This document shows, piece after piece, positions 26,001-63,539 of a DNA stretch of 64,000 nucleotides (its first letter is position 1; the number at the start of each line of letters is the position of its first letter). The notes beneath the pieces are model-generated. The model saw only the letters and a list, made by a program, of their open reading frames with translations. It did no database searches and was not told where the DNA came from. The stretch is from NCBI GenBank assembly GCA_964451435.1, contig CAYVHW010000001.1, positions 740-64,739 of the forward strand. The letters run 5' to 3'. The DNA comes from an uncultured Nitrososphaeria archaeon (lineage in GTDB: Archaea; Thermoproteota; Nitrososphaeria_A; Caldarchaeales; Wolframiiraptoraceae). A program made the position numbers and the translations under genes.

Positions 26001-26065
26001 AAACATCCCTTTATCTTTTTTATCCAACCAATTCCAAATATACTTAAATTAACTGAGGTGAGAAG

Positions 26066-38595: not shown

Positions 38596-39864
38596 TTGAG
38601 GAGGATGAGGGGATTTAAGAGGCTCATCGGGGTCTCCGAGGCCTTGGAGAAGTTGAGGAAAGCCGTAGCCCATCGGATAAGGAAGGTCGAGGAGGTCGAG
38701 CTAATGGATTCCCTTGGGAGAGTATGCGCTGAAGATGTGAAGGCTAGGATGGATGTCCCACCCTATGATAGAAGCGCCGTGGACGGCTATGCGATTATAG
38801 CCGAGGATGTATTCGGGGCATCGCCGATGAATCCGGTAAAGCTCAAGCTCGTCGGCAGAATCTTGGCCGGATCGAATCCATTAACCATCCCAAGGGTTGA
38901 GAGGGGTGAGGCGGCCGAGATCATGACCGGAGCTCCGATGCCATCCAATGCAAACGCTGTTGTGATGGCAGAAGACGTGAAGGTCGTCGAGGATGGAATC
39001 GAGGTATTGAAACCCGTCCACCCATATCGAAACGTCTCCAGAAGGGGTGAAGACTTCGCCAGGGGAGAGACCGTGATCAGGAGAGGTGTTAGGGTTAAGC
39101 CATGGCACATCGGGGCCCTCGCATCCTTAAACGTGAAGAGGTTGAAGGTTTTCAGAAGGCCTAAGATATCCGTTCTATCGACTGGGGATGAGCTGATCGA
39201 GCTTGGAGGAGAGCTCAAGCCCGGAAAGATAGTGAACTCCACTAAGCCCATGCTCATGGCCCTCCTACTCGCTGAGGGCTGCATCCCACTGGATCTAGGA
39301 ATCGTGGGAGACGATGTGGACGAGATCCATTCAAGGATCTTAACGGGCCTGAGGAAATCTGATGGAGTGATAGTTACGGGCGGATCAAGCATAGGTGTGA
39401 GAGATCTCGTCCCAGAAGCCGTTAAGAGATTAGGAGAGATAATATTTCATGGATTGCGGATTAGGCCTGGGAAGCCGACGGGAGCAGCCGTTTCAGATGG
39501 AAAGCCTATCTTCATGCTCTCAGGATTCCCGGTTGCGGCGGCGGTGGGATTCGAGGCGTTGGTGAGGCCGATCTTAGCCCATATGCAGGGATGCGTGATC
39601 GAGCCTCGACCTAAAGTTGAAGGAATCCTTACGAGAAGGGTTGTTAATCCGCCGAACACCAGATCTTATGTGAGGGTTAGGGTCTTCGAATCCGATGGTA
39701 GGATCATGGTTGAGCCCTTGAGGTTGACTGGATCCGGGATATTGTCGTCGCTTACGAGGGGGAATGGATTATTGATAATCCCTGAAGAGCTTGAAGGATA
39801 TGATGAGGGAAGCTCCGTGGAGGTGGAGCTCCTCCAGCCAATAGAGAGAGGTGATGAGAGATGA
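38596..39864 (+). CDS. moeA: molybdopterin molybdo/tungsto-transferase MoeA (paralogue 1)
   Basis: 422 aa with the MoeA domain order (N, MoCF-binding GGSSIG, C-terminal). Its stop overlaps the start of paralogue 2. Confidence 0.8.
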   Translation: MRRMRGFKRLIGVSEALEKLRKAVAHRIRKVEEVELMDSLGRVCAEDVKARMDVPPYDRSAVDGYAIIAEDVFGASPMNPVKLKLVGRILAGSNPLTIPRVERGEAAEIMTGAPMPSNANAVVMAEDVKVVEDGIEVLKPVHPYRNVSRRGEDFARGETVIRRGVRVKPWHIGALASLNVKRLKVFRRPKISVLSTGDELIELGGELKPGKIVNSTKPMLMALLLAEGCIPLDLGIVGDDVDEIHSRILTGLRKSDGVIVTGGSSIGVRDLVPEAVKRLGEIIFHGLRIRPGKPTGAAVSDGKPIFMLSGFPVAAAVGFEALVRPILAHMQGCVIEPRPKVEGILTRRVVNPPNTRSYVRVRVFESDGRIMVEPLRLTGSGILSSLTRGNGLLIIPEELEGYDEGSSVEVELLQPIERGDER

Positions 39865-41807
39865 GGAGAATATTCCATAAACTTCTCTCACCTGAGGAGG
39901 CGTTGAAGATAATCGAGGAGAGGGCGGAGTCGGTGAAGAAGCCTGAGCCGGAGGTCGTGAAGTTATCCGATGCTCTTGGTAGGATATTGGCCGAGAACAT
40001 CTATGCTAGAGTTGATTCACCACCATTTGACAGAGCAGTAGTCGATGGATACGCGGTGAAGGCCGAGGATGTTTATCGAGCGGATGAGGCGAACCCGGTC
40101 GAGCTGAGGTTGATCGGAGGAGTTGAGGTTGGGGAGATTCCAAGGCTGGAGCTTAGATCCGGTGAATGCGTGGAGATCGCGACCGGAGCTCCCATACCTA
40201 GAGGAGCCGACGCCGTAGTGATGGTCGAACACACGAAGAGGATCGGAGACAAGATCTTGATCTATAGAGGCGTCCACCCCGGGGAGAATGTGGCGCAGAC
40301 GGGATCCGATATCACGGCTGGAGATCTGGTCTTGAGGATGGGTAGGAGGTTAAGGTCTAGAGATATTGCGATCCTAGCGGCGGTTGGATATGATCGGGTC
40401 AAGGTCTACAGGAGGCTTAGAGCCGCATTCTTCTCAACAGGAAACGAGCTAATATCTCCGCCGAATCCATTAAAGCCCGGTAAGATCTACGATGTGAATG
40501 GATACGTTATTCCAGCCATGTTAAGGGATCTCGGATTGGATGCGGACTTCTTGGGAATACTTCCAGACAGATATGACGCGATGTTAAACGCGATTAGAGA
40601 CGCATTAGATAAGTATGATCTCGTGATCACCTCTGGGAGCACGTCGGCGGGAGCTGGAGATGTGATCTACCGAGTCTTCGAGGAGCTTGGAGAGATAATA
40701 GTCCACGGCTTAAGGGTTAAGCCCGGGAAGCCCACGGTCATAGGATTATCTAGAAACGGGAAGCTCTTGATAGGGTTGCCCGGATTCCCCCTCTCATGCG
40801 CGATGGTCTTCATCCACCTAATCAAACCCCTACTCAATAAGCTGACCGGGGCTAGGGAAGAGCCCCGCTACTGGAAGGCCAAGGCCAAGCTACCTATCAA
40901 GATCGAGACGGGAGGTGGAAAAACCTGGTATATTCCAGTTCAGATAGTTGACTCGCCGAATGGGCTTATGGTCTACCCGATTCTCCGAGGATCTGGATCT
41001 GCTTCGACCCTAGCCGAGTCCGATGGATTCATAACGATACCCGAAGACGTGGTCTTCGTGGATGAGGGAGAGGAGGTCGAGGTAAATCTATTCGAGGAGC
41101 TTAGAATTCCAAGCATATCGATAATCGGAAGCCATTGCCCAGCCATAGACCTTATCCTGAACCTCGGAGGTATCTACGACGCGAAGGTGATTAACGTTGG
41201 ATCGCTTTCAGGCTGGAGGGCGTTGAAGCTCGGAACAGCCGACATCTCCGGAACCCACCTCCTAGACGAGAAGACCATGAGATACAATTTCCACATGCCC
41301 GAAGAGCTTGGACTTGGGGATGAGGTGGAGATTTATGGAGGATATATTAGGGAGATCGGATTCATGGTCGCAAAGGGAAACCCGAAGAATATTAACGGAT
41401 TCGAAGATCTCTTGAGAGAGGACGTCGTCTTCATCAACAGGGTTAAGGGATCGGGAATACGAACCCTAATAGACATAGAGCTTAAGAGAATGGGAATAAC
41501 GGATCCAGAGAAGAGGATTAAGGGATATGTCTATGAGGCCAAGACCCATACAGCCGTGGCCTCGGCGGTCAAGGATGGTAGGGCGGATGTCGGGGTGGGG
41601 ATAGGATATGTCGCGAAACTATACGGCCTCGACTTCATCCCGATAAGGGAGGAGAGATTCGACTTCGCCGTGAGGAGAGATAGACTGTATAAGCCTGCCG
41701 TGAGAAAGTTCTTAGAAACCTTGAGAAGTAAGAGGTTCGCTCAAGAACTCGGCAAGCTCCCACACTACAGGATTCACGAGCAGACCGGGAAGAGGATCTA
41801 TCCGTGA
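39861..41807 (+). CDS. moeA: MoeA (paralogue 2) fused to a C-terminal PBP-like molybdate/tungstate-binding domain
   Basis: 648 aa. Residues 1-400 form a MoeA core (SGSTSAG). A roughly 240-aa C-terminal domain (SISIIGSHCPAIDLI...GTADISGTHLLDEKT...) resembles the periplasmic-binding-protein-like oxoanion domain of ModA/WtpA/ModE-type proteins. Confidence 0.7.
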   Translation: MRRIFHKLLSPEEALKIIEERAESVKKPEPEVVKLSDALGRILAENIYARVDSPPFDRAVVDGYAVKAEDVYRADEANPVELRLIGGVEVGEIPRLELRSGECVEIATGAPIPRGADAVVMVEHTKRIGDKILIYRGVHPGENVAQTGSDITAGDLVLRMGRRLRSRDIAILAAVGYDRVKVYRRLRAAFFSTGNELISPPNPLKPGKIYDVNGYVIPAMLRDLGLDADFLGILPDRYDAMLNAIRDALDKYDLVITSGSTSAGAGDVIYRVFEELGEIIVHGLRVKPGKPTVIGLSRNGKLLIGLPGFPLSCAMVFIHLIKPLLNKLTGAREEPRYWKAKAKLPIKIETGGGKTWYIPVQIVDSPNGLMVYPILRGSGSASTLAESDGFITIPEDVVFVDEGEEVEVNLFEELRIPSISIIGSHCPAIDLILNLGGIYDAKVINVGSLSGWRALKLGTADISGTHLLDEKTMRYNFHMPEELGLGDEVEIYGGYIREIGFMVAKGNPKNINGFEDLLREDVVFINRVKGSGIRTLIDIELKRMGITDPEKRIKGYVYEAKTHTAVASAVKDGRADVGVGIGYVAKLYGLDFIPIREERFDFAVRRDRLYKPAVRKFLETLRSKRFAQELGKLPHYRIHEQTGKRIYP

Positions 41808-41870: not shown

Positions 41871-42416
41871 ATGGGTGGAAAAGCTGTATTCGTCGCCCAC
41901 TGCATCCTAAACCAGAACTCTAAGGCGTTGGGATTCGCGAGCCGCCCAGGTCTCGTTGAATGGCTCATAGACTTCCTCAAAAAGAGTGGATGCGTTGTCG
42001 AGCAACTTCCTTGCCCTGAGATGCTCTATCTCGGAGTTAATAGATGGTGGCATACAAGAGACCAGTATGATACGCCCGGATTTAGGAGGCATTGTAGGAG
42101 GCTCGCAAAGATGGTTGCAGACTTAATGGAATATTATCGGAGACGCGGCCTCGCCGTCGTCTTGATAGGAATCGATGGAAGTCCATCATGCGGCGTAAAC
42201 CTGACTGGGAGGAACCCGTATTGGGGTGGGGAGCCTAGGGCATCCGCCGAGCAGTATCAGGTGGTTGAGGGAATGGGTGTTTGGATGGAGGAGCTTCTCA
42301 AGGAGGTTGAGAGGAGGGGGATTAAGCGATTCAAGGTCATCGGATTAGCGATGGATCTACCCGGCTTCGATCTCAAGGAGACGCTTAAGATGCTTGAGGC
42401 CGAGCTGGAGGGATAG
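41871..42416 (+). CDS. DUF523 family Fe-S protein (2-thiouracil desulfidase TudS-like)
   Basis: 181 aa. Cys11 (VAHCILNQ), a CPE motif (LPCPEM) and SPSCG occur at the spacing recalled for DUF523 [4Fe-4S] ligands. Confidence 0.5.
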   Translation: MGGKAVFVAHCILNQNSKALGFASRPGLVEWLIDFLKKSGCVVEQLPCPEMLYLGVNRWWHTRDQYDTPGFRRHCRRLAKMVADLMEYYRRRGLAVVLIGIDGSPSCGVNLTGRNPYWGGEPRASAEQYQVVEGMGVWMEELLKEVERRGIKRFKVIGLAMDLPGFDLKETLKMLEAELEG

Positions 42417-43666: not shown

Positions 43667-44533
43667 ATGAGATTTAGGCCCGTTCTAAGGCCACTGCTCT
43701 GCAAACCCGTGATAGATAGGCTTCTAAGGGCCAGAGATCATGAAGAGGTTGTTAAGATCTCATTAGATCTCGGCAGAAGCCTCCATGAATGCTCTATTCG
43801 AGAGGAGGGAGTTATGATAGATGATCAGCTGATAAGGTGGGAGGAATTGGAGAGAGCGTCGAAGAGGGAGAGGGATATATTCACGGTAGCTGATGGTAGG
43901 CTTCTCTCGCTCTCGATCTCAGGCAGACACTTCTATAAACTGGTCTTCATAGGCTGGGGGCATCCACCAACCCTAGAGATAGATGGAATCCACATGCATA
44001 GGATCAAGGACATAACCCCGGATAGGGATGCTTGGATGAAGGTTAAGCTATGCGGAGACCTCAGATGTAAAAGAGTGTTGGATACATGCATGGGGCTTGG
44101 ATACACGGCGATAGTAGCCTTAAAGATGGGGGCGTGCAAGATCATCACGGTCGAGGTAGATGAGAATGTCGTTGAGCTAGCGAGGCTGAACCCTTGGTCT
44201 AAGGAGCTCTCAGATGAGAGGATAGACTTCAGGCTTGGAGATATAAGAGAGTTGATAGATGGATTCCGTGGGGAATTCGATGCAATAGTACATGATCCTC
44301 CGAGATTCTCCCTAGCCGGAGAACTCTATAGCCTCGAATTCTATAGAAAGCTGAATAAGGCGTTGAGGTTGGGTGGGAGGCTCGTCCACTATGTCGGCCA
44401 GCCTGGGATCGTTAAGGGTAGGGCGATCTGGAGGGGCGTTATGAGGAGGTTGAGGGAAGCCGGATTCGATGTGAAATATGATTCGAGGTCTCGATGCGTC
44501 TATGGGGTTAAGCTAAGAGATCTCAGCCCATAA
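43667..44533 (+). CDS. class I SAM-dependent methyltransferase (COG2521-like, DPPxF motif)
   Basis: 288 aa with a Rossmann MTase core (VLDTCMGLGYTAI ... EVDEN ... IVHDPPRFS). The target is unknown. Confidence 0.5.
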   Translation: MRFRPVLRPLLCKPVIDRLLRARDHEEVVKISLDLGRSLHECSIREEGVMIDDQLIRWEELERASKRERDIFTVADGRLLSLSISGRHFYKLVFIGWGHPPTLEIDGIHMHRIKDITPDRDAWMKVKLCGDLRCKRVLDTCMGLGYTAIVALKMGACKIITVEVDENVVELARLNPWSKELSDERIDFRLGDIRELIDGFRGEFDAIVHDPPRFSLAGELYSLEFYRKLNKALRLGGRLVHYVGQPGIVKGRAIWRGVMRRLREAGFDVKYDSRSRCVYGVKLRDLSP

Positions 44534-45581
44534 TCATCGACATTATAGCCTTCTGGACGTGGAGCCTATTCTCGGCCTGATCGAATACCACCGAGTGGGG
44601 GCCATCGATCACCTCATCCGTCACCTCATATCCCCTATCGGCTGGGAGGCAGTGCATGTAGATCACATCCCTCTTCGCGACCTCAAGCTTCTCCGAGTCG
44701 CAGATCCAGTCCCTATTCTTCTCGAATAGCTCCTTCATCCCATCGAAGTCGGGCTTCGAGGCCTTCGGAGGAATATAGTTTAGGCTCAGCCAAGACTTTG
44801 GATAAACTACATCAGCGCCCTCGAAGGCCGCCTTCATATCATGGACTATCTCGAATGACCCGCCGAACTCATCAGCATACTTCTTACATTGTTCGATCAC
44901 CTTTGGATCTAGGTCGAATCCCTTTGGGTGAGCTAGGACGACGTCCATCCCAAACTTTGTCGCGACTAAGACGGCGCTTTGGGGGACGGCTAGGGGCTTC
45001 TCGACGCTTGGGGTGTATGCCCAGCTCATCACAAACTTCTTTCCCTCGACCTTCCCCAACTTCTCCTTAATCGTCATTATATCTGCCATGGCTTGGCATG
45101 GATGATACATGTCGCACTCCATGTTTATCACGGGGACATCGGCCCACCTCGCAAACTCTCTAATGATCCTATTCCCTCGGCCATAGATCCACTTAGCATG
45201 CTTCCCATAAATCCTAATGGCTATGCCATCACCATACCTTGAGAGAACCCTCGCGACATCGGCGATCCTCTCAGTCGTGTAAGCTATCTCATCTCCTGGG
45301 AGGGCTGGGGTGTAGATGGCGTCATGTGGGTCCAGAAAGTGGGCGTGGCCTCCGAGCTGCGTCATCCCAGCCTCAAAGCTATTCCTAGTCCTGAGAGATC
45401 TATTATAGAAGATCAGGAATAGAGTCTTCCCCTTGAGATATGGGTGCTCGACCTTCCTAAACTTCCTCTTCAAGTCCATGGCGGCGTCGAGGATTTGGTC
45501 AAGCTCCTCCCTAGTCCACTCAATCGTCGTTATCCAATCCCTACCACGATACATTCCAACATACTTGGGTAGCTCGGACAT
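44523..45581 (-). CDS. transcarbamylase-fold protein, non-canonical (YgeW-like/unknown specificity), paralogue A
   Basis: 352 aa. Carbamoyl-P motifs are present (SLRTR, HPCQ, HCLP), but the OTCase D..SMG motif is replaced by VYPKSW and no ATCase R-x-Q-x-ER is present. It is about 40 aa longer than OTC/ATC. Confidence 0.7.
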   Translation of the reverse strand: MSELPKYVGMYRGRDWITTIEWTREELDQILDAAMDLKRKFRKVEHPYLKGKTLFLIFYNRSLRTRNSFEAGMTQLGGHAHFLDPHDAIYTPALPGDEIAYTTERIADVARVLSRYGDGIAIRIYGKHAKWIYGRGNRIIREFARWADVPVINMECDMYHPCQAMADIMTIKEKLGKVEGKKFVMSWAYTPSVEKPLAVPQSAVLVATKFGMDVVLAHPKGFDLDPKVIEQCKKYADEFGGSFEIVHDMKAAFEGADVVYPKSWLSLNYIPPKASKPDFDGMKELFEKNRDWICDSEKLEVAKRDVIYMHCLPADRGYEVTDEVIDGPHSVVFDQAENRLHVQKAIMSMIMG

Positions 45582-45616
45582 CTAGATCCACCGAGAGAAG
45601 GGTATCGATGAAGGGT

Positions 45617-47002
45617 TTAAGCTTTTCCACCTCCACGAATCGGGGATAATCTCTCTGGACGGCCTCTCTTAACATATTCTCCATATCCCTCGCGTCCAAG
45701 AACCTCTCCATCCCTATAGATTATCTCGCCTCTTAGGATGGTCATGTAGATCCTCCCCCTACACCTATACCCCTCATACGGCGTCCACCCAGATCTTTGA
45801 TGGAGTTCATCAGCCTTAATCATCCACTCACGGTTTAGATCGATCACGGTTAGATCCGCGTCCGAGCCTATCGCTATAACTCCCTTCTTGGGATAGAGCC
45901 CAAACCTCCTCGCGGGATTCTCGGAGAGTAGTCTAGCGAGATCCATGAGCGTGATCCTTCCCTGATTAACCCCCTCACTCAACATGAGTGGAAATAGGGT
46001 CTCGATCCCCGGCAGCCCGCTCCTTATCGGCCAAATATCACTCCATCCAGGCTCTCTATCTTCCTTGAATGTTGAGTAATGGTCTGTCGCAACCATATCT
46101 ATCAACCCACTTCTAAGACCCAGCCATAGAGCCTCCAAGTCCTCTCTCAATCTAAGGGGTGGGGTCATCTTGAGGTATGGGCCAAGCTTCTCAACATCAT
46201 CCCTCGTGAATATCAGGTAATGAGGGCATGTCTCACAGCTTATATTGACTCCACGATATTTCGCCTCCTCAATAAGCTTCAACCCCTCCATCGTCGTCAA
46301 GTGAACTATATGTATCCCGCATCCAGTCGCCCTCGAATAGGCTATAACCCTACCTATCCCCTCAACCTCCGCAAGCCTCGGCCTAGACTCATGGTATGCC
46401 ATCGGATCTCTCCTATCCATAGACTTTAGCCTCTCGGTGTAGAGGTCTACGAGGAATCCATTCTCAGCGTGGAACATGCATAGTCCCCGACCCTTAACCA
46501 TCTCCATAAGCCTCAAAATATCTCGATCGTCTATCATGTATGGCTTGCAGAGGAATAGCTTGAATGAATTGACTCCAAGATCTATCAAAGAGTTTGGATC
46601 GAATCCTTCTAAGCTCTGTATATTTCCCGCATGTAGGCCGAAGTCTATGCGAGACCATCTCTCGCCGGCCTCGATCTTTTCTCTCAAAGCATCGGTGGTG
46701 ATATACGGCGTATCGGTAGGCATCTCGATTATCGTCGTGACCCCTCCAGCGGAGGCCGCCAAGCTTATCGACCTAAAATCCTCTCTCGGCCCAAAGTGTT
46801 TTGGATCATAGGCGTGGACGTGGACATCTATCGCTCCTGGGAGCACGTATCTCCCATTCAGATCTATTTCAATGTCTCCCCTCGGTAGATGATTTATCGA
46901 CGCTATGGAGATAATCTGTCCTCGATCGATCGCAACCCCGGCCTCGAACACACCCTCTCTAAGGACGAGCCTACAGTTCTTCAATACTAGGTCGACGGTC
47001 AA
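45617..47002 (-). CDS. cyclic amidohydrolase (hydantoinase/dihydropyrimidinase/allantoinase family)
   Basis: 461 aa. Metal ligands DVHVH are present, and VNSFKLF is the NSFK carboxylated-Lys motif of DHPase/hydantoinases (absent in type I dihydroorotases). Confidence 0.7.
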   Translation of the reverse strand: MTVDLVLKNCRLVLREGVFEAGVAIDRGQIISIASINHLPRGDIEIDLNGRYVLPGAIDVHVHAYDPKHFGPREDFRSISLAASAGGVTTIIEMPTDTPYITTDALREKIEAGERWSRIDFGLHAGNIQSLEGFDPNSLIDLGVNSFKLFLCKPYMIDDRDILRLMEMVKGRGLCMFHAENGFLVDLYTERLKSMDRRDPMAYHESRPRLAEVEGIGRVIAYSRATGCGIHIVHLTTMEGLKLIEEAKYRGVNISCETCPHYLIFTRDDVEKLGPYLKMTPPLRLREDLEALWLGLRSGLIDMVATDHYSTFKEDREPGWSDIWPIRSGLPGIETLFPLMLSEGVNQGRITLMDLARLLSENPARRFGLYPKKGVIAIGSDADLTVIDLNREWMIKADELHQRSGWTPYEGYRCRGRIYMTILRGEIIYRDGEVLGREGYGEYVKRGRPERLSPIRGGGKA

Positions 47003-47060
47003 CTCAGCTCAACAAGTATCCTCGATCACATGATAAATCTCTTTCCAGAATCTCAGCCCA

Positions 47061-48095
47061 CTACTCATACAGTTTCTTACTCATGGTTAGGGCTAAGACC
47101 GCCATCTTGACGTATAATCCGTTCTCGGCCTGCTCGTAGATCACAGACCTCGGCCCATCCATAACCTCATCAGACGCCTCCTCACCCCTCAAGACTGGTA
47201 GGACGTGGGTGACTATCCCCTTCTTGTCCATTAGGTCGACGAGATCTTGGGTTAGACACCAATCCCTATATCTTCGATGGATCTCAAGCTCCCTCTCAAC
47301 CCCGAACCTAGACGCACCAATGCTCAATAGTTCCCAGCTCGCCCAGCTTCTCGGGAAGACTACATGAGCGCCTTCAATCGCTGGTTTAAGATCACTTGTT
47401 ATCTCAAGGCTTCCACCGCTCCTTTCCGCATTCTCCCTCGCCACCTTGACTATCTCTGGATCTAGGTTGAATCCGGGTGGATGAGCTACGACCACATCCA
47501 TCCCAAACCTCGTCATTATCAATAGCTCGGCCTGAATGCTGCATAGTCCTCTGAGCCTTGAGGCATAAGCCCACATAATCGTATACTTCTTCCCCTCAAT
47601 CTTTCCAAGCCTCTCCCTGACGGTCATAAGGTCTTGGATCGCTTGGGTTGGGTGATAGGTGCAGCATGCCATGTTTATCACAGGCTTCTCGGAGTGTCTC
47701 GCATACTCCATCACCGTCCACCTCCCAAGCCCATACCTGTAGTCTATGGCCTTGTCGAGGCATCGAACCCCTATCCCATCACCATATCTCTCATACATCT
47801 TCGCCACATCCTTCAACCTCTCCCCAAACCCTATCCTAAGCGTCGAGACATCGATATATGACATATGTCCTCCGAGCAAGTTCATCCCAGCCTCGAATGC
47901 TGCTCTAGTTCTGGTCGATGGGGCGTAGAAGATCGCGAAGAAGGTCTTATCCTTTAGAAACTTTGGGATCTTCTCCCCTCTCCTATGCATTTTCTTGAAT
48001 TCCGATGCGAGTCTTATCGCCTCCTCTATCTCCTCAACGCTCCAGTCTTGAGTCGTGATCAAGTCTCTACCATATAGATCCACACCTATCTTCAT
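47061..48095 (-). CDS. transcarbamylase-fold protein, non-canonical (YgeW-like/unknown specificity), paralogue B
   Basis: 344 aa with STRTR, HPTQ, HVLP and VFPRSW in place of the SMG motif. It shares the unusual features of paralogue A. Confidence 0.7.
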   Translation of the reverse strand: MKIGVDLYGRDLITTQDWSVEEIEEAIRLASEFKKMHRRGEKIPKFLKDKTFFAIFYAPSTRTRAAFEAGMNLLGGHMSYIDVSTLRIGFGERLKDVAKMYERYGDGIGVRCLDKAIDYRYGLGRWTVMEYARHSEKPVINMACCTYHPTQAIQDLMTVRERLGKIEGKKYTIMWAYASRLRGLCSIQAELLIMTRFGMDVVVAHPPGFNLDPEIVKVARENAERSGGSLEITSDLKPAIEGAHVVFPRSWASWELLSIGASRFGVERELEIHRRYRDWCLTQDLVDLMDKKGIVTHVLPVLRGEEASDEVMDGPRSVIYEQAENGLYVKMAVLALTMSKKLYE

Positions 48096-48164
48096 GGCGT
48101 TAACAATGTCTGTGTCAATTATTTTAATCTTTTAATAGGTTCTCAGGCGTGAGATTCCTTGTTC

Positions 48165-48177
48165 AAAATTTATATAA
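48165..48177 (+). promoter_or_regulatory. BRE/TATA-like element (CAAAA-TTTATATA) in the 117-nt divergent intergenic region
   Basis: Read directly from the sequence. It lies about 35-45 nt upstream of the TTG start at 48213 and may also serve the divergent transcarbamylase operon via the palindromic TATA. Confidence 0.35.
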
Positions 48178-48212
48178 TTGGTGAAGACATGGTTTAGTCT
48201 TGGGTCTTTGGC

Positions 48213-48701
48213 TTGAGGAGAACTCTCCTAATTGATGCGGAAAAGTGTACTGGTTGTAGACTCTGCGAACTGGTCTGCTCATTTCAACATTACAAGGTCT
48301 TTAATCCAAGGAGGTCTAGGATAACGGTGATAAGGGATGAGGAGAAGGGAGTATTCATTCCGATGACATGCTTTCAATGCGAAGATCCCCCATGCATGAA
48401 GACCTGTCCAACCCACGCGATCTATAGGGATGAGAATGGAGCGATTAGAATAGATTATGAGAAGTGTATAGGCTGTAAACTCTGCATAATGTATTGCCCA
48501 TTCGGCGGAATCTCGATAGATCCCGTCACCATGAAGGTGATAAAATGCGATCTATGCGGGGGAGATCCAGAGTGTGTGAAGTATTGTCCGAAGGGAGCCA
48601 TACAGTATGTTAGGGTGGATGAGGTTGGGGTCAAGAAGAGGATCGAGGGTGCCAAGAAGATTCATGAGAGGATTAAGGTGATCATGGGAGGTGAATCCTA
48701 G
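48213..48701 (+). CDS. 4x[4Fe-4S] polyferredoxin-like small subunit (AOR partner, WOR5/YdhY/AorA-like)
   Basis: 162 aa with four CxxCxxCxxxCP-type motifs (CTGCRLCELVC, CFQCEDPPCMKTCP, CIGCKLCIMYCP, CDLCGGDPECVKYCP). TTG start. Confidence 0.8.
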   Translation: MRRTLLIDAEKCTGCRLCELVCSFQHYKVFNPRRSRITVIRDEEKGVFIPMTCFQCEDPPCMKTCPTHAIYRDENGAIRIDYEKCIGCKLCIMYCPFGGISIDPVTMKVIKCDLCGGDPECVKYCPKGAIQYVRVDEVGVKKRIEGAKKIHERIKVIMGGES

Positions 48702-48703
48702 AG

Positions 48704-50638
48704 ATGTATAAGGGGTATGCGGGGAGAATACTCCGCGTAGACCTAACGTCTAGAAATGTCAAGGTGGAGCCGCTGCCGGATGGATTGGCGTTAAACTATC
48801 TGGGCGGGACGGGATTCGCCGCTAGAATCCTCTGGGATGAAGTGAACGCTGAAACAGATCCACTAAGCCCGGAGAACGTCTTGATAATAGCGACAGGGCC
48901 CGTGAATGGAACGGCCTTCCCACCATCCGGGAGATATATGATGGCCTCAAAGTCTCCCTTGACGGGTATCTGGAGCGAGTCCCACGTCGGAGGCCACCTT
49001 GGACCAGAGCTGAAGTACGCGGGCTACGATATGATACTCGTGAAAGGTAGAAGCTCTGAACCAGTATACCTGATGATCGATGATGATAGGGTTGAGGTTA
49101 GGGATGCCAAGAACATCTGGGGTAAGGATACGAGGGAGACCGTGAAGACCCTATGGGATGAGCTTGGAGATAGATCGTTTAAGATCGCATGTATAGGGCC
49201 TGCCGGCGAAAACATGGTCAAGATCTCCTCGGTTATCTCGGAGATGGGGAGGGCGGCTGCCAGAACAGGTATAGGAGCGGTCTGGGGTAGTAAAAGGCTT
49301 AAGGCCATAGCGGTCAGAGGGTCGAAGGACATCGAGGTGGCTGATCCCGATGGATTCATGCAGCTCGTTAAGGAGTCGATCCGAATGTGCACCGAGGAGT
49401 TCTTCGGGAAGGCGGCTCAAGACACGCTTGGAAAGTATGGGACTCCATGCTTGGTCGAGATGCTCAACTCGATTGGAAGGCTTCCGACAAAGAACCATTG
49501 GACAGGTGTCTTCGATAAGGCCAACCTAATTGGCGGAGAGGCCGTAAGGAGCAGGTATAGGTTTGCTCAAGTGCCATGCTTGGCCTGCGTGATCCAATGC
49601 GGATATATATCATATATTCGAGAGGGAAGATATGCTGGGACGATCACAAAGGGGCCTGAGTATGAGTCGATCTTTGCCCTCGGATCAAATTGTCTTGTCC
49701 CGGATATCGAGGCCATAATCCACATGAACATGCTCTGCAACCTCTATGGGCTCGACACGATCTCGACTGGGAAGACTCTTTCATGGGCGATGGAATGCTA
49801 TGAGCATGGACTCCTGACGAAGGATGATCTAGATGGGATGGAGCTTAGGTGGGGGGATCTAGAGGCCATGATAAAGCTGATAGAGAAGATCGCGAGGAGG
49901 GAGGGGGTTGGAGACATCTTGGCCGAGGGTGCTAAGAGGGCTTCGGAGAAGATTGGGAGGGGAACCGAGAAATACGTGATCCACATCAAGGGGATGGAGG
50001 TCTCAGGCCAAGATCCAAGAGCGCATAAATCCGCAGGCTTATCCCTCGCGATAGCGGTTAGAGGTGCAGATCATCTAAGAGCATTATCTTCAATAGAGGA
50101 GCTTGGATTCACCCAGATAGTCACCGATCGATATGGTGAGGATAAGGTCGAGGCGTTGAGCGATAGGCTTAGCGAGGAGTATAAGGGCTTCTTGATAAAG
50201 GATCTCGAAGACTTATACGCGATAACAGACTCCCTAATCGTGTGCAAGTATGGGACCATGTGGCCTCCAATCTACTACTTCGATCACTTCGCGAAGCTCA
50301 TACCACTCCTAACAGGGATGAAGGAGTACGGTGATGTGAGCTATGTTAGGCTCGTGGCCGAGAGGATATCGAATCTTAGGAGGTGTTTCAACGTGAGGGA
50401 GGGGATAACGAGAAGGGATGAGAACCTGCCCAAGAGATTTACCGAGGAGCCCATGCCCCATGGACCAGCGAAGGGCCATGTCTGCAACCTTGAACCAATG
50501 CTCCGAGAATACTATCAATATAGGAGGTGGGATTATGAGACGGGTCTACCATATAGGGAGACGTTGGAGGAACTCGGCCTGAAGGATGTCGCGGATGAGC
50601 TTGAGGCCATGGGGAGGATTAAGAGGAGGGAGGGCTAA
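48704..50638 (+). CDS. aldehyde:ferredoxin oxidoreductase family tungsto(molybdo)pterin enzyme, paralogue 1
   Basis: 644 aa. The N-terminus (MYKGYAGRILRVDLTS) and the CLACVIQC motif (C-x2-C-x3-C) match the AOR family, with AFOR_N/AFOR_C architecture. Confidence 0.85.
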   Translation: MYKGYAGRILRVDLTSRNVKVEPLPDGLALNYLGGTGFAARILWDEVNAETDPLSPENVLIIATGPVNGTAFPPSGRYMMASKSPLTGIWSESHVGGHLGPELKYAGYDMILVKGRSSEPVYLMIDDDRVEVRDAKNIWGKDTRETVKTLWDELGDRSFKIACIGPAGENMVKISSVISEMGRAAARTGIGAVWGSKRLKAIAVRGSKDIEVADPDGFMQLVKESIRMCTEEFFGKAAQDTLGKYGTPCLVEMLNSIGRLPTKNHWTGVFDKANLIGGEAVRSRYRFAQVPCLACVIQCGYISYIREGRYAGTITKGPEYESIFALGSNCLVPDIEAIIHMNMLCNLYGLDTISTGKTLSWAMECYEHGLLTKDDLDGMELRWGDLEAMIKLIEKIARREGVGDILAEGAKRASEKIGRGTEKYVIHIKGMEVSGQDPRAHKSAGLSLAIAVRGADHLRALSSIEELGFTQIVTDRYGEDKVEALSDRLSEEYKGFLIKDLEDLYAITDSLIVCKYGTMWPPIYYFDHFAKLIPLLTGMKEYGDVSYVRLVAERISNLRRCFNVREGITRRDENLPKRFTEEPMPHGPAKGHVCNLEPMLREYYQYRRWDYETGLPYRETLEELGLKDVADELEAMGRIKRREG

Positions 50639-51799
50639 ATGGTGGACATATCGGTTGAGATCGCCGGAATAAAGCTCAGAAACCCCGTCCTAACGGCGGC
50701 TGGCCCACCATCGAGGGATGCTGAGGCGTTGATCAAGGCGGCTGAGGGCGGTGCAGGTGGATTGGTCGCCAAGACTATAAGCTTGAAGCCCGCCGAAGTC
50801 CCCAGACCATGCCTATCGGTCGTGAATCGAGAATACTCGGTGAGAATCCCGGGATTCAAGACCTATACCACATGTGGGTTTCTGAACGTGGAGCTTTGGT
50901 CGGATATGCCATATCAGAGGTGGGTTGAGCGCGAGTATGCTCTTGTGAAGGAGAAGACGGGATTACCATTGATAGCCAGCATAGGATATACTCCGGAGGA
51001 GGTCTCGAAGCTTGGGAGGCTCGTTGAGAAGGCTGGGGTTGATGGGATAGAGTTCTCAACCCATTACATAGGATTCGATCCAAAGCCAATTAGAGAGGTC
51101 GCTAAAGCCCTTAGAGAATCCGTTGAGATCCCCATCTTCGCCAAGCTCAGCCCACATCTCCCAGACATAACCCCATTCGCAAAGGCGGTCGAGCCATACG
51201 TGGACGGCATAGTCGCGATAAACACCTATGGCCCAACCCTCCACATAGATATAGAGACTGGGAAACCGCTGCTCGGGGGGAAGAATGGATATGGATGGCT
51301 ATCGGGGCCGGCTCTAAAACCAATAGCCGTCAGATATATCGCCGATATAGCTAGAGCGGTTAAGGTTCCAGTCATAGGCGTCGGGGGGATAATGTCTGGA
51401 AAGGATGCAGTCGAGCACATAATGGCGGGAGCATCCGCGGTCGAGATATGTACTGGAGCGATCCTAGAGGGGCCGGGGATCTATGGGAGGGTTGCACATG
51501 AGATCGAGGAGTTCCTAAAGACCCATGGATACGACTCGATCGAGGACATAAAGGGTATGGCCTTGAAATGGCTCCCCGAGAAACCGTTAAGAACCACACC
51601 TCTACCGCCTAAGGTCGATCCAGAGAAATGCACGGGCTGTAGAATATGTGAGAGGGCATGCATCTATGAGGCGGTAGAGATGGTTAAGGATCCGAAGACT
51701 GGGAAGCTGATCGCGAGGACGATCGAGGAGAAATGCTATGGATGCGGGCTCTGCGTGAGTATATGCCCGACGAGGGCGAGATACTTCGAGGAGGAATGA
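50639..51799 (+). CDS. PreA-type dihydropyrimidine dehydrogenase homologue (DHODH/DPD FMN barrel + C-terminal 2x[4Fe-4S] ferredoxin domain)
   Basis: 386 aa with a PyrD-like TIM barrel (GFLNVEL...IGVGGI...). The C-terminus carries CTGCRICERAC...CYGCGLCVSICP. Its ATG overlaps the AOR1 stop (TAAATG). Confidence 0.7.
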   Translation: MVDISVEIAGIKLRNPVLTAAGPPSRDAEALIKAAEGGAGGLVAKTISLKPAEVPRPCLSVVNREYSVRIPGFKTYTTCGFLNVELWSDMPYQRWVEREYALVKEKTGLPLIASIGYTPEEVSKLGRLVEKAGVDGIEFSTHYIGFDPKPIREVAKALRESVEIPIFAKLSPHLPDITPFAKAVEPYVDGIVAINTYGPTLHIDIETGKPLLGGKNGYGWLSGPALKPIAVRYIADIARAVKVPVIGVGGIMSGKDAVEHIMAGASAVEICTGAILEGPGIYGRVAHEIEEFLKTHGYDSIEDIKGMALKWLPEKPLRTTPLPPKVDPEKCTGCRICERACIYEAVEMVKDPKTGKLIARTIEEKCYGCGLCVSICPTRARYFEEE

Positions 51800-51802
51800 G
51801 AT

Positions 51803-52324
51803 TTGAAGCTCCTCATAATAGACTATGATCTATGCTCCGGTTGCAGGGTCTGCGAGCTCATATGCTCCATGGAGCACGCGGGGGTCTTTAAGCCATCGAT
51901 CTCAAGGATAAGGGTCGTGAAGAACGATAAGCTGAGCATAGACGTGCCTCTAGTCTGCATCCAATGCGAGAGCCCGGCATGTGTGAATATCTGTCCAGCC
52001 AAGGCATTGAGCAGGGATGAGGAGACCGGGATAGTGAGGCTGAACCCAGATAAATGCATCGGCTGCAACCTCTGCATATTGAAGTGCCCATATCATGGAG
52101 TCTTCAAGACCCCCGATGGAGTCGTCGTGAAGTGCGATCTATGTGGAGGAGATCCGAGATGCGTCAAATACTGCCCAACCGGAGCCTTACAATATGTTGA
52201 AGAGTCGCCCGAGACTAAGGCCAAGAGGGAGAAATCCAGGGAAAAGCTCCTAAAACTTCTCAAAGAATATGAGTTGGAGAAGCCCGCCTTGAGGATCGCG
52301 AGGGTTGGAGGGAGTGGGGCTTGA
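51803..52324 (+). CDS. 4x[4Fe-4S] polyferredoxin-like small subunit, paralogue 2
   Basis: 173 aa with four Cys motifs collinear with the 48213 protein. TTG start 3 nt after the PreA stop. Confidence 0.8.
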   Translation: MKLLIIDYDLCSGCRVCELICSMEHAGVFKPSISRIRVVKNDKLSIDVPLVCIQCESPACVNICPAKALSRDEETGIVRLNPDKCIGCNLCILKCPYHGVFKTPDGVVVKCDLCGGDPRCVKYCPTGALQYVEESPETKAKREKSREKLLKLLKEYELEKPALRIARVGGSGA

Positions 52325-54234
52325 AGTATAAGGGATATGTCGGCAGATATGCTTTAATCGATCTGACGAGGCAGTCGATCCATATCGAGCCATTAGATGA
52401 GGGGCTTGCGAGAAACTATATCGGTGGAAGCGGTTTCGCCGCCAGAATCCTCTATGACATGCTCAGACCCGGGATAGATCCATTGAGCCCTGAAAATGTG
52501 GTGGTTATCGCGACAGGCCCATTGACCGGAACCCTATGGCCCACCACTGGGAGATATATGATGGCCTCGAAGTCCCCGTTGACTGGGATCTGGGGTGAGA
52601 GCCATGCTGGAGGACACTTCGGCCCAGAGCTCAAGTATGCTGGATTCGATTATCTCGTGATAACTGGTAGGAGTGAGAGGCCGACCTACATCTACATCGA
52701 TAATGGGAGGATCGAGCTTAGGAGGGCTGAACATCTATGGGGGTTAAACGTCCACGAGGCGACGGACGCCATTAAGGAGGAGACCGATCCAAACGCGCAC
52801 GTGGCATGCATAGGTCAGGCGGGAGAAAACCTAGTTAGGTTTGCCTCGGTGATAAGCGACTATCATAGAGCTCATGGGAGGACAGGTGTGGGAGCTGTTT
52901 GGGGCAGTAAGAGACTCAAGGCCATAGCCGTTAGAGGGGATGGGGAGGTTGAGGTCGCGGACCTGGAAAAGTTCATGGAGCTCGTCGAGGATGCTCATGA
53001 AAGGGTTCTAAAGCATCCACAAGCTAGAGACCTCGCAAAGTATGGAACACCGTTGCTGGTTGGGTATAAGCAGTCGATAGGAGAGTTCCCTACAAAGAAC
53101 CATTGGACGGGAGTCTTCGATGGTGCGAAGGAGCTCATGGCCGAGGTGTTGAAGGAGAGGTTTTGGGTGAGGGATAGAGCTTGCTTCTCATGCAGAGTTC
53201 AATGCAAGAAGGTATACACAGTTAAGGAGGGAAGATATGCTGGAATAGTATCCGAGGGGCCTGAATACGAGGGAATATACTCATTTGGATCAAATCTGGG
53301 AAACTCCGACTTCCCATCGATCTTCTACGCAAACTACCTCTGCAACAATTATGGATTAGACGCTATATCGACTGGATGCGTGATCGCCTTCCTAACCGAG
53401 TGCGTTGAGCGTGGGATAGTCGGTAGGGATGAGGTTGATGGCCTCGATCTCAAATGGGGAAATCATGAGGCGTTCATCGAGCTAATCCACAAGATAGCGA
53501 AACGTGAGGGTATAGGAGATCTCTTGGCCGAGGGGGTTAAGAGGGCGTCTGAGAAGATTGGGAGAGGCTCAGAATACTACGCGATCCACGTAAAGGGATT
53601 AGAGGTCTCAGGCCAAGATGGGAGAACCCATAGATCGATAGGATTGAGCCACGCAGTCGCCAGCAGGGGCGCAGACCATCTAAGAGGGCTCGTCACCGTC
53701 GACCAGCTTGGATATGAGGAGATAGCGGCGAAGAGGTGGGGTAGGGATAAGCTCCCAGACATATGCAACCCATATAGTGAGAAGTGGAAGGCCTTAGCGG
53801 TCAAGACGACCGAGGATGTCTACGCGGTGAGGGATCTATTGATAGTATGCTGGTATACGGTCTCATGGCCTCCGATCTACTGGATCGAGGACTTCGCCAA
53901 GATACTTCCAGCCGCGACCGGAGAGGAGGCATTTGGAAGGGTTGAGGAGCTCTTGAAGATAGGCGAGAGGGTCGTGAATCTTGAGAGATGCTTCAACGTT
54001 AGGGAGGGGATAACGAGGAAAGACGACAGGCTTCCGAGGAGATTCATCGAAGAACCCATGCCCGAGGGGCCTGGAAAAGGTCAAACCGTCAATCTCGACT
54101 TAATGCTGGATGAATACTATGATTTGAGGGGATGGGATAGGAAGACCGGGATACCGAGGAAGGAAACCCTTGAGAGGCTTGGGCTTATCGAGGAAATCGA
54201 GGACTTGAGGAGGATGGGAAGGCTTCCAGAGTAG
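52321..54234 (+). CDS. AOR family tungsto(molybdo)pterin oxidoreductase, paralogue 2
   Basis: 637 aa. MKYKGYVGRY..., CFSCRVQC. Closely paralogous to AOR1. TTG start with a 4-nt overlap. Confidence 0.85.
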   Translation: MKYKGYVGRYALIDLTRQSIHIEPLDEGLARNYIGGSGFAARILYDMLRPGIDPLSPENVVVIATGPLTGTLWPTTGRYMMASKSPLTGIWGESHAGGHFGPELKYAGFDYLVITGRSERPTYIYIDNGRIELRRAEHLWGLNVHEATDAIKEETDPNAHVACIGQAGENLVRFASVISDYHRAHGRTGVGAVWGSKRLKAIAVRGDGEVEVADLEKFMELVEDAHERVLKHPQARDLAKYGTPLLVGYKQSIGEFPTKNHWTGVFDGAKELMAEVLKERFWVRDRACFSCRVQCKKVYTVKEGRYAGIVSEGPEYEGIYSFGSNLGNSDFPSIFYANYLCNNYGLDAISTGCVIAFLTECVERGIVGRDEVDGLDLKWGNHEAFIELIHKIAKREGIGDLLAEGVKRASEKIGRGSEYYAIHVKGLEVSGQDGRTHRSIGLSHAVASRGADHLRGLVTVDQLGYEEIAAKRWGRDKLPDICNPYSEKWKALAVKTTEDVYAVRDLLIVCWYTVSWPPIYWIEDFAKILPAATGEEAFGRVEELLKIGERVVNLERCFNVREGITRKDDRLPRRFIEEPMPEGPGKGQTVNLDLMLDEYYDLRGWDRKTGIPRKETLERLGLIEEIEDLRRMGRLPE

Positions 54235-58232: not shown

Positions 58233-58340
58233 ATTAAGCACCTCAATAACCAAAATGATCTTGATGATAGATAAGTGATTCATCTTAACATGGAAAAATC
58301 TTAAATCGGAGATAGGTCGAGATCATGAGGGTGTCGTCGA

Positions 58341-58811
58341 ATGCCATACATCTACGCCGATCCATCGAGGTGCACTGGATGCGAGATATGCGTCTTAACA
58401 TGTTCATTCACATACTTCAAGGTCCTAAATCCGAAAAAGGCTAGGTTGAGGGTCGTGAGGATGGAGCCCGCAATAGATCTAGTGATCGCTTGCAGGAATT
58501 GTGAGAAGGCGCCGTGTATGGAGGCGTGTCCAAACGAAGCCATCAAAAGAACATCTAAGGGGATAATCGTGATAGATGAAGGGAGATGCGATGGATGTGG
58601 AAGATGCATCGAGGCATGTCCCTTAGACGCCATCCACATACCCCCCAATGGGAGAGCCCCGATAAAGTGCGTGGCCTGCGGAGCATGTGTTCAAGCATGC
58701 CCCGTGGGATGTCTCAAGATAGCTTATAGCTTTGAGGAGGCGTTTGAGAAGCGAAGGAACTATGCTGAGAGACTTAAGGAAATAGTCTTGAACTTGAGGA
58801 GTGGTGGATAG
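58341..58811 (+). CDS. 4x[4Fe-4S] polyferredoxin-like small subunit, paralogue 3
   Basis: 156 aa. MPYIYADPSRCTGCEICVLTC..., four Cys clusters. Confidence 0.8.
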   Translation: MPYIYADPSRCTGCEICVLTCSFTYFKVLNPKKARLRVVRMEPAIDLVIACRNCEKAPCMEACPNEAIKRTSKGIIVIDEGRCDGCGRCIEACPLDAIHIPPNGRAPIKCVACGACVQACPVGCLKIAYSFEEAFEKRRNYAERLKEIVLNLRSGG

Positions 58812-58898
58812 CTAGGATCCATTAGCTCGGTCAAAATCTTCGATTCAAGTTGGAGATTGGATAGATTTTATATGGGGCGATTCACCGACTTATTCGGC

Positions 58899-63533: not shown

Positions 63534-63539
63534 CCCGTC

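Follow-up and report, generated by a model that had tools for sequence, protein, structure and literature searches.

Twin carbamoyltransferase families around an archaeal hydantoinase gene and their probable role in purine degradation

In a stretch of 64,000 nucleotides from an uncultured Nitrososphaeria archaeon (contig CAYVHW010000001.1, positions 740 to 64,739; the whole 64-kb stretch is called the window here), two transcarbamylase (TC) genes, TC-A and TC-B, flank a gene for a hydantoinase-type cyclic amidohydrolase on the minus strand. Alignment with their homologues assigns the two proteins to two sister families, each with its own invariant pocket residues, and we consider it probable that both serve the catabolic phosphorolysis of ureido compounds in nucleobase, specifically purine, degradation. 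A fuller reading, which we hold to be evenly poised between right and wrong, makes them distinct catabolic carbamoyltransferases that belong to an anaerobic, reductive purine cluster and phosphorolyze both ureido groups of 2,3-diureidopropionate. The twin-TC module is widespread in anaerobic archaea and bacteria. A literature search found no description of the TC-A/TC-B pair, of its distribution, or of an archaeal reductive pathway; the phosphorolytic logic and the arrangement of two TCs have precedents in Rubrobacter and Nocardioides (Barba et al. 2013).

The reductive uric acid pathway was worked out in 2025, in gut bacteria only (PMC12507026; bioRxiv 10.1101/2025.04.24.650524; commentary PMC12990295; these sources also cover the steps that follow). 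XdhD or XdhAC reduces urate to 2,8-dioxopurine, a further reduction is carried out by YgfK or the PydA-like UacX, and SsnA opens the pyrimidine ring to give 5-ureidomethylhydantoin. HyuA then opens the hydantoin, yielding 2,3-diureidopropionate with its two ureido groups. One of these is phosphorolyzed by YgeW, which together with YqeA leads to ATP, and the other is hydrolyzed by YgeY, after which YgeX converts 2,3-diaminopropionate to pyruvate. The order in which the two ureido groups are removed is disputed.

Two sister families of transcarbamylases

An earlier, sequence-only reading of this DNA had placed TC-B, the amidohydrolase, and TC-A on the minus strand, with TCs of 352 and 344 aa, and the open reading frames lie exactly as it put them. 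TC-B (47061-48095, 344 aa), a putative type-B or Arg-type carbamoyltransferase, is transcribed first, followed after 58 bp by the amidohydrolase (45617-47002, 461 aa, Pfam Amidohydro_1), a candidate analogue of HyuA, and after another 35 bp by TC-A (44523-45581, 352 aa), the putative type-A catabolic carbamoyltransferase. Both TCs carry Pfam OTCace_N and OTCace domains (E values of 1e-35 to 1e-42), which places them in the transcarbamylase superfamily. Regular-expression searches located SLRTR at 62, HPCQ at 160, YPKSW at 260, and HCLP at 310 in TC-A, with R123 as the conserved beta4 Arg, and STRTR at 60, HPTQ at 148, FPRSW at 247, and HVLP at 297 in TC-B, with R111 as the beta4 Arg; the carbamoyl phosphate signatures described earlier are thus present. 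The same searches found in neither TC the D...SMG motif of ornithine carbamoyltransferases (OTCases) or the R.Q.ER motif of aspartate carbamoyltransferase (ATCase). All OTCase and ATCase cut-offs in NCBIfam are missed as well: both proteins score 117 to 147 bits on the ATCase models (cut-offs of 237 to 263), and the best OTCase model gives 274 bits for TC-A (cut-off, 306) and 215 for TC-B (cut-off, 281). No pyrI gene lies near the TCs. The earlier claim that they are neither OTCases nor ATCases therefore stands.

The (Y/F)P(K/R)SW segment had been proposed to replace the ornithine-site motif, and this is borne out by alignment, in which YTDVWASMG of P. furiosus OTCase lies over FPRSWASWE of TC-B, so that the Asp of DxxxSMG is aligned with the K/R of the segment. 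The segment is not a new character, however, because the Lys of YPKSW in TC-A occupies the known second-substrate site of the knotted transcarbamylases, K252 in N-acetylornithine carbamoyltransferase (AOTCase), K236 in N-succinylornithine carbamoyltransferase (SOTCase), and K270 in YgeW (Shi et al. 2015, PMC4581275). In those enzymes it works with Glu144, Glu142, and Gln160, respectively (PMC4581275). The idea of a derived character shared by the two proteins accordingly fell. The excess length of about 40 residues held against some references and not others: TC-A and TC-B exceed E. coli PyrB (311 aa) by 41 and 33 residues and P. furiosus OTCase (315 aa) by 37 and 29, but E. coli ArgI (334 aa) by only 18 and 10. 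The extra length is located in the 120's and 240's loops, plus the 80's loop in TC-A, with insertions as in AOTCase.

To place the two proteins, we gathered orthologues at 55 loci of genomes and 80 of metagenomes; the alignment comprised 104 non-identical sequences of the TC-A type and 92 of the TC-B type, the sets to which the residue counts below refer. TC-A and TC-B are 43% identical, and in a neighbor-joining tree, which carries no bootstraps, they form sister clades within the YgeW/AOTCase group, apart from the OTCases and ATCase. Three differences between the clades are invariant: TC-A has Glu where TC-B has Ala and Lys where TC-B has Arg, and only TC-A possesses a Pro-rich loop. With such differences at second-substrate positions, the earlier view of one family with one specificity gives way to two sister families.

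TC-A most closely resembles AOTCase in sequence and fold. Its best PDB match, over the full length, is the AOTCase of X. campestris (1e-70), with YPKSW aligned to YAKSW, and the match to SOTCase is far weaker (4e-35). The AlphaFold2 model (pLDDT 95.6) superposes on AOTCase with a TM score of 0.89/0.94 and a root mean square deviation (rmsd) of 1.7 to 1.9 Å, whereas most OTCases deviate by more than 3 Å; TC-A carries the Pro-rich loop and extended 120's loop of the knotted transcarbamylases. TC-A also reaches 322.3 bits on the NCBIfam AOTCase equivalog NF003384, above the cut-off of 288. The residues that distinguish AOTCase are Glu92, Asn185, and Lys302, and those of SOTCase follow the pattern A/S/P/V/Q, Pro, V/I/E, with His176, Arg178, and Arg278 binding the succinyl group (PMC4581275). 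At the AOTCase triad positions, 104/104 TC-A-type sequences have Thr, Pro or Lys, and Glu, the alignment at the middle position being ambiguous by one residue. Apart from the first position, these residues are similar to the SOTCase pattern.

In the sequence alignment, the putative pocket residues of TC-A recall those of YgeW. Invariant in the family are SLRTR, Y90, E155 (at the position of AOTCase Glu144), K195-P196 in the Pro-rich loop, K262, D315 within HC(L/G)P(A/C)D, E319, and R339. The putative second-substrate site of YgeW is surrounded by Gln160, Ser200, Lys203, Lys270, Asp334, and Glu344 (PMC4581275), and the invariant K195-P196, K262, D315, and E319 of TC-A match K203-P204, K270, D334, and E344 of YgeW. 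The equivalent of S200, Ser192 in TC-A, is retained in 78 of the 104 sequences, and at the Gln160 position TC-A has Glu and TC-B has Ala, as judged from the sequence alignment only. Because the specificity triad is not conserved and no examined locus has arginine biosynthesis neighbors (none of these genes was seen in the window or at any of about 140 related loci that we examined), the AOTCase label of TC-A is doubtful and probably wrong. More than 8000 TC-A homologues exist, many of them named N-acetylornithine carbamoyltransferase by NCBI or JGI; those we inspected lack the AOTCase triad and adjoin carbamate kinase and purine genes. The naming is probably a systematic mis-annotation that arises from the permissive cut-off of NF003384.

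TC-B is the more divergent of the two with respect to YgeW, retaining of its second-substrate-site residues only Glu306 in the alignment. It falls below every NCBIfam cut-off, including that of NF003384 (214.5 bits), and the best fit of its model (pLDDT 93.7) is to the unknotted OTCase of P. furiosus (rmsd of 2.2 Å, against 3.0 Å for AOTCase). The extended 120's loop is present and the Pro-rich loop is not; the loop that carries R182 is without prolines. Invariant residues are R87, A143 (AOTCase E144), R182, R249 (AOTCase K252), W251, and E306; the AOTCase triad positions read Gly, Gly, and Glu, and the HxLP site is HVLP here and HPMP in bacterial members. All the carbamoyl phosphate-binding residues (S, R, T, R, R111, H, and Q) are invariant in the 92 TC-B-type sequences, so TC-B is probably an active enzyme, and second-substrate positions that differ invariantly from those of TC-A would fit a second, chemically different ureido substrate. 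An equivalence of Arg249 and Arg182 with ATCase Arg229 and Arg167 was considered and rejected, as the multiple alignment puts them one and three residues off.

Gene neighborhoods in the window and in relatives

We compared 35 loci centered on TC-B, taken from genomes that represent species and flanked on each side by 3 kb or more, and 34 well-flanked metagenome loci centered on TC-A. Carbamate kinase is found at 27 of the 35 TC-B loci, TC-A at 23, a ThrC-like pyridoxal phosphate (PLP) enzyme at 22, and an amidohydrolase of the type of AH447, a window protein described below, at 18; nucleoside (Bmp-type) ABC transporter genes and a CysK-like PLP enzyme occur at 11 each. Around TC-A, a TC-B-type gene is adjacent at 29 of the 34 loci, accompanied by carbamate kinase (23 loci), a ThrC-like enzyme (13), XDH subunits (9), adenine deaminase (7), MocA (7), and an SsnA-like protein (6). 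Recurrence of the TC-A/TC-B pairing at this frequency in independent loci indicates that it goes beyond chance. The neighboring kinase passes the arcC cut-off.

The link with purine degradation is apparent in the bacterial operon L064/L083, one same-strand run with a TC-A that is 65% identical. The run starts with genes for a HyuA-like protein (43% identical to E. coli HyuA), XDH-Mo, a PreT-like protein (32% identical to the N-terminal part of YgfK), a PreA-like protein, an SsnA-like protein (35.5% identical to E. coli SsnA), and a CysK-like enzyme and continues with TC-A, a TC-B-type gene, carbamate kinase, a ThrC-like enzyme, Fer2, a xanthine/uracil permease, MocA, and XDH-FAD. No YgeY-like or YgeX-like gene was found in this locus. 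At four further loci (L107, L111, L120, and L134), TC-A, a TC-B-type gene, and carbamate kinase stand with an SsnA-like gene, XDH subunits, MocA, adenine deaminase, and nucleoside ABC genes. At L031, an SsnA-like gene adjoins a PydA-like gene, and at L061 an ECF transporter, a hydantoinase, and a racemase-family gene lie between TC-B and the ThrC-like, CysK-like, TC-A, and carbamate kinase genes. Several lineages, including Hadarchaea and some Bathyarchaeia, have TC-B and carbamate kinase without TC-A.

Some neighbors recur only within lineages. In Bathyarchaeia, TrxR, RDD, beta-CASP nuclease, and Ord-like genes next to TC-A were set aside as lineage specific rather than part of a pathway; TrxR passes the thioredoxin reductase equivalog, and the nuclease is unrelated. 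A more remote TC, with 41% identity to TC-A and a position beside YgeW in the tree, occurs in metagenome-assembled genomes (MAGs) of Peptococcaceae and Clostridia (L055 and L056), where its neighbors encode an M20 peptidase, an enzyme of the AOR family (tungsten aldehyde:ferredoxin oxidoreductase fold), and an amidohydrolase of the AH447 type, so the association of AOR, amidohydrolase, and TC is also bacterial.

The protein encoded between the two TC genes belongs to the cyclic amidohydrolases by its motifs and by a full-length match to a solved member. The HVH and NSFK motifs described for it earlier were found at 61 and 145, together with DHY at 307, and NSFK matches the carboxylated-Lys segment of the L-hydantoinase of Arthrobacter aurescens (1GKR), an enzyme for 5-substituted hydantoins and its best PDB match (2.6e-94, end to end), followed by allantoinase and D-hydantoinase. 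It lies below all NCBIfam equivalog cut-offs; the one model whose cut-off it reaches is pyrC_multi, a broad subfamily-domain model.

A divergent intergenic region of 117 bp (48096-48212) separates the TC-B operon from redox and hydrolase genes on the plus strand. These begin with a polyferredoxin-like subunit and AOR-family oxidoreductase 1 (48213-50638; Pfam Fer4 families and AFOR_N/AFOR_C), followed by a PreA/PydA/UacX-like reductase (50639-51799) that combines Pfam DHO_dh with C-terminal 2x[4Fe-4S] Fer4. The architecture of the reductase is that described for UacX of C. difficile; among NCBIfam models it matches PreA best, with a score of 214 bits that stays under the threshold, and its identity to the PreA-like protein of L064 is 32%. 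Next come a second polyferredoxin-like subunit with AOR-family oxidoreductase 2 (51803-54234, by Pfam), the TRZ/ATZ-type amidohydrolase AH447 (54243-55586, Pfam Amidohydro_1), and PALP419 (55606-56865, Pfam PALP), a ThrC-like fold-type-II PLP enzyme. The SsnA-like amidohydrolase AH471, whose best NCBIfam family is SsnA, is encoded on the minus strand (56868-58283), and a third polyferredoxin-like subunit with AOR-family oxidoreductase 3 (58341-60812, by Pfam) on the plus strand.

AH471 is 38% identical to the SsnA-like protein of L064. AH447 is nearer to guanine deaminase, with 25% identity to E. coli GuaD (132 bits) compared with 24% to SsnA (109 bits), and a gene of its type stands directly upstream of TC-A in L063, L066, L068, and L077. 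The two represent different TRZ/ATZ subtypes, that of AH447 being the most frequent TC neighbor in other lineages. PALP419 passes the NCBIfam threonine synthase model PRK08197 (368 bits against 303), and its best PDB match is Aquifex ThrC (8e-76); it may process 2,3-diaminopropionate rather than being a threonine synthase. The ThrC-like protein has an N-terminal Cys-rich segment in the window and in L001 (11042-12292) and L064 (11044-12282).

Each of the three AOR genes is preceded by a polyferredoxin-like gene, and Fer4 and AOR genes also adjoin TC-B in L017, L025, L028, L031, and L035. The best PDB match of AOR1 is the ordinary AOR of P. furiosus (7.7e-141); AOR2 is 54% identical to AOR1, and AOR3 is 49 to 52% identical to both. 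The AORs sit where bacterial clusters carry XDH, with XDH at 12 TC loci, AOR at 11, and both at none. Their role could be purine (de)hydroxylation or the supply of reduced ferredoxin, or their presence could be coincidence.

Other genes of the window lie farther out. Two tandem MoeA genes (38596-41807, plus strand; Pfam MoeA_N, MoCF_biosynth, and MoeA_C), the second fused to a PBP-like, oxyanion-binding domain (PBP_like), stand immediately upstream of the cluster, are syntenic in the L007 contig, and fit tungsten or molybdenum cofactor supply for the AORs. A protein of 181 aa beside the cluster (41871-42416, plus strand) has a weak Pfam match to 2-thiouracil desulfurase (DUF523/TudS; E value of 6.5e-4, below the gathering score); this TudS-like candidate, also syntenic in L007, would add a further gene related to nucleobases. 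At a distance of 17 kb, a nucleoside phosphorylase gene is followed by genes for a Bmp-type ABC transporter of nucleosides (21980-28107, plus strand; Pfam PNP_UDP_1, ABC_tran x2, Bmp, and BPD_transp_2 x2), a possible feeder module, and the same type of transporter stands beside the TC module in many Bathyarchaeia loci. An ECF-type transporter with two ABC ATPases and a CbiQ-family T component (61841-63956, minus strand) marks the cluster edge and may import the pathway substrate; a similar module lies between TC-B and the hydantoinase in L061 (11292-14509). The gene set of the window is archaeal, with SecY, Cbf5, and an archaeal-type D-aminoacyl-tRNA deacylase, and its proteins are 94 to 99% identical, gene for gene, to those of the L007 contig from the MAG "Thaumarchaeota archaeon AUK039" (JAGGTD01). 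Rfam and tRNA scans of the window returned one tRNA-Ser only (21775-21860) and no riboswitch or other RNA near the cluster.

A proposed pathway and competing explanations

In the scheme that we propose, a ferredoxin-linked PreA/UacX-like enzyme would reduce a purine, the SsnA-like hydrolase AH471 would open the six-membered ring, and the hydantoinase encoded between the TC genes would open the five-membered ring to give 2,3-diureidopropionate. TC-A, with its YgeW-like pocket, and TC-B, with its Arg-rich pocket, would each remove one ureido group with phosphate, and carbamate kinase, adjacent in relatives and outside the window, would turn the carbamoyl phosphate into ATP. A fold-type-II PLP enzyme, probably the ThrC-like one, would finally deaminate 2,3-diaminopropionate to pyruvate. 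In comparison with E. coli, which uses YgeW, the hydrolase YgeY, and YgeX, both ureido groups would be kept as carbamoyl phosphate.

What the sequences show directly are the gene content, the motifs and family signatures, and the conserved linkage to carbamate kinase and purine genes; we infer the direction of the reaction, the substrates (2,3-diureidopropionate and then the mono-ureido product), the ureido group handled by each enzyme, and the PLP-dependent finish. That two TCs would take the two ureido groups follows by elimination, since the upstream steps have homologues in L064/L083, leaving the TCs, carbamate kinase, and two PLP enzymes; the pocket residues would give TC-A the step equivalent to that of YgeW and TC-B the other. 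Catabolic phosphorolysis of a ring-opened N-carbamoyl compound, as proposed earlier, fits the gene context and the carbamate kinase found beside orthologues at most loci, though the window itself offers no kinase, so that the catabolic direction rests on relatives. 2,3-Diaminopropionate, one of several candidate amines put forward in the sequence-only reading, is the amine product predicted for the TC pair acting in sequence.

The window has a counterpart for each step apart from three: the initial molybdenum enzyme, carbamate kinase, and YgeY and YgeX as such. None of XdhD/XdhAC, YgeY, YgeX, and YqeA (0/4) is encoded there, and the cluster has AOR-family genes, another TC, and a PLP enzyme of the ThrC type instead. 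A bolder interpretation takes the window for a complete archaeal tungsten- and ferredoxin-based reductive purine pathway, in which the three AORs would take on the hydroxylation and dehydroxylation of purines that bacteria entrust to molybdoenzymes of the xanthine dehydrogenase (XDH) family, the twin TCs would yield two ATP per purine by way of carbamate kinase, and ThrC- or CysK-like enzymes would replace YgeX; we regard this as unlikely.

A number of observations weigh against the proposed scheme. Within the 64 kb there is no carbamate kinase (Pfam scans returned no AA_kinase gene) and no homologue of XDH or XdhD. The amidohydrolase is only modestly similar to E. coli HyuA (32.5% identity, full length), and AH471 stays below the SsnA cut-off (395.6 bits against 444; 31% identity to E. 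coli SsnA, 6e-57); homologues in the bacterial twin-TC operons are clearer. The scheme uses a single PLP enzyme, whereas two go with the module. Many Bathyarchaeia loci have TC-A, carbamate kinase, TC-B, PLP enzymes, and a deaminase-like hydrolase, yet a hydantoinase, an SsnA-like gene, and a PreA-like gene are all missing within 10 kb. At L124, a YgeY-like M20 protein (40% identity) stands with TC-A and a TC-B-type gene, which rules out, as a clean rule, that TC-B simply replaces YgeY. Three compact loci (L074, L112, and L129) consist of carbamate kinase, PreT, PreA, and TC-A with no TC-B-type or amidohydrolase gene nearby and may represent a single-TC variant, perhaps for pyrimidines.

Reductive pyrimidine catabolism, in which the PreA-like enzyme would reduce uracil or thymine, a dihydropyrimidinase would follow, and the TCs would phosphorolyze N-carbamoyl-beta-alanine or beta-ureidoisobutyrate, comes near to the idea of the sequence-only reading. 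A PreA-like reductase and a dihydropyrimidinase-type hydrolase are the classic Pyd enzymes, the amidohydrolase scores 325 bits on the NCBIfam D-hydantoinase/dihydropyrimidinase model, the compact loci with PreT, PreA, and TC-A are also without an SsnA-like gene, and the xanthine/uracil permease family does not separate purines from pyrimidines. We nevertheless judge this explanation improbable, given the linkage of the module to genes specific for purines, namely, those for XDH subunits, MocA, adenine deaminase, and SsnA-like proteins, and given that an SsnA-like gene goes with the PreA-like gene both in the window and in L031. Two near-identical beta-ureido acids, moreover, need no two divergent TC pockets, and threonine synthase- and cysteine synthase-type PLP enzymes would be without a role on beta-alanine. 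Pyrimidine biosynthesis, for which the genes could be mistaken as pyrB, pyrC, and pyrD look-alikes, was discarded: the proteins fall short of the ATCase and DHODH cut-offs, the architecture of the reductase is that of PreA, and the amidohydrolase has its closest matches among hydantoinases. Near-equal scores of 350 bits for allantoinase, 340 for ErtD, and 325 for hydantoinase, all below cut-off, would allow the amidohydrolase to feed other hydantoin or ureido substrates to the TCs, one per TC: allantoin by way of allantoate and oxalurate (with UGTCase- or OXTCase-like activity), hydantoin-5-propionate by way of N-carbamoylglutamate, or citrulline-type compounds from a deiminase-like amidohydrolase. 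The Rubrobacter module of cyclic amidohydrolase, TCase, and carbamate kinase acts on allantoate, also a diureido acid, an ECF transporter and an Asp/Glu/hydantoin racemase-family gene lie beside the hydantoinase in L061, and Ord-like and class III aminotransferase genes occur near Bathyarchaeia loci. We give such substrates little credence, as no inspected locus has uricase or allantoin pathway genes, TC-A and TC-B group with YgeW and AOTCase, and the PreA-like and SsnA-like pair indicates the reductive purine route.

The near-obligate gene linkage (29/34 loci) could also mean that only one paralogue works, with the other, most likely TC-B, being noncatalytic or regulatory or forming a mixed oligomer that acts on a single ureido substrate. 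TC-B is indeed without the Glu, Lys, and Pro-rich loop of TC-A, and archaeal TC-B also lacks an equivalent of Arg322. The core carbamoyl phosphate-binding residues of TC-B are invariant in all 92 sequences, though, three additional invariant arginines in its specificity loops make the pattern of a working active site, and in Hadarchaea, some Bathyarchaeia, and other lineages it occurs with carbamate kinase in the absence of TC-A; a single working enzyme is in our estimation a slim prospect. Least credible, and very nearly dismissed, is the reading given in databases, where TC-A homologues are named AOTCases and TC-B homologues OTCases, which would make TC-A an anabolic N-acetyl- or N-succinylornithine carbamoyltransferase of arginine biosynthesis and TC-B an ornithine carbamoyltransferase. 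TC-A does pass NF003384 (322 versus 288 bits), and AOTCase is its best solved relative in both sequence and fold. The Glu92/Asn185/Lys302 triad is replaced in 104/104 TC-A sequences, however, TC-B lacks DxxxSMG and stays under all OTCase cut-offs, and no arg genes were seen beside either family at any locus, carbamate kinase and purine-catabolic genes being found there instead.

If the twin-TC scheme for purines is correct, the module would represent a more energy-conserving variant of the reductive uric acid pathway and would extend that pathway to Archaea, including Bathyarchaeia, Hadarchaeales, Desulfurococcales, and the relatives of the window organism, as well as to bacteria of sediments and hot springs. 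It would also provide functions for two large families, thousands of whose members now bear the name of ornithine or N-acetylornithine carbamoyltransferase and so enter metabolic reconstructions as enzymes of arginine biosynthesis. The practical weight of the finding lies here, since both families are systematically annotated as arginine biosynthesis enzymes. If each TC is specific for one ureido position, as we presume, the pair could help settle which group of 2,3-diureidopropionate leaves first.

Comparison with known systems

The closest known system is that of E. coli YgeW, which lies on the same branch of the superfamily and has neighbors of the same kinds, hydantoinase, SsnA-like, PreA/YgfK-like, and carbamate kinase, the last of these being found here only in relatives. 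YgeW resembles TC-A in its Pro-rich loop (WAYTPSVEKPLAVPQ in TC-A and WAYSPSYGKPLSVPQ in YgeW), in YPKSW, in an identical HCLPAD, and in Glu344. Identity is nevertheless only 35% for TC-A and 28.5% for TC-B, and the equivalog cut-offs of the YgeW hidden Markov models (453 and 500) are missed by both, with 177 to 188 bits for TC-A and 150 to 156 for TC-B. YgeW is longer, at 396 aa, with extra terminal helices and a long insertion in the 240's loop that are absent from the TCs of 344 to 352 aa. It is also a single enzyme, in contrast to the conserved TC-A/TC-B pair, and no homologues of YgeY or YgeX were found in the window or in L064/L083, a YgeY-like protein being present in L124.

The AOTCase of X. 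campestris (ArgF') is the best sequence and fold match to TC-A and shares with it the same loop insertions and the conserved Glu144 and Lys252 positions. It differs in that its triad is not kept in TC-A and in that the context of TC-A is catabolic, with carbamate kinase and purine genes; TC-B, for its part, is without Glu144, Lys252, and the Pro-rich loop.

The logic of the proposed pathway is also known from other systems. In Rubrobacter xylanophilus, ureidoglycine carbamoyltransferase (UGTCase) cleaves allantoate and is found with allantoinase and carbamate kinase, and in Nocardioides sp. JS614 a "pseudo-ATCase" stands beside a ygeW homologue, xdhABC, and hyuA (Barba et al. 2013). As in our scheme, a cyclic amidohydrolase of the UGTCase system generates a diureido acid, a TCase phosphorolyzes a ureido group, and carbamate kinase makes ATP. 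In the tree of the superfamily, however, UGTCase and the pseudo-ATCases fall within the ATCase branch and carry HPLA or H[ST]LP motifs, whereas TC-B has HVLP or HPMP and groups with TC-A, YgeW, and AOTCase; the oxidative allantoin route of Rubrobacter moreover needs uricase, which is absent here. The arginine and agmatine deiminase pathways, with a catabolic OTCase or PTCase, likewise couple ureido phosphorolysis to substrate-level phosphorylation through carbamate kinase. They differ in their upstream chemistry and in their TCases, as DxxxSMG is lacking here and the PTCase model gives 191 to 218 bits against a cut-off of 500, and they differ further in that, in the module described here, two TCases would act serially on one molecule.

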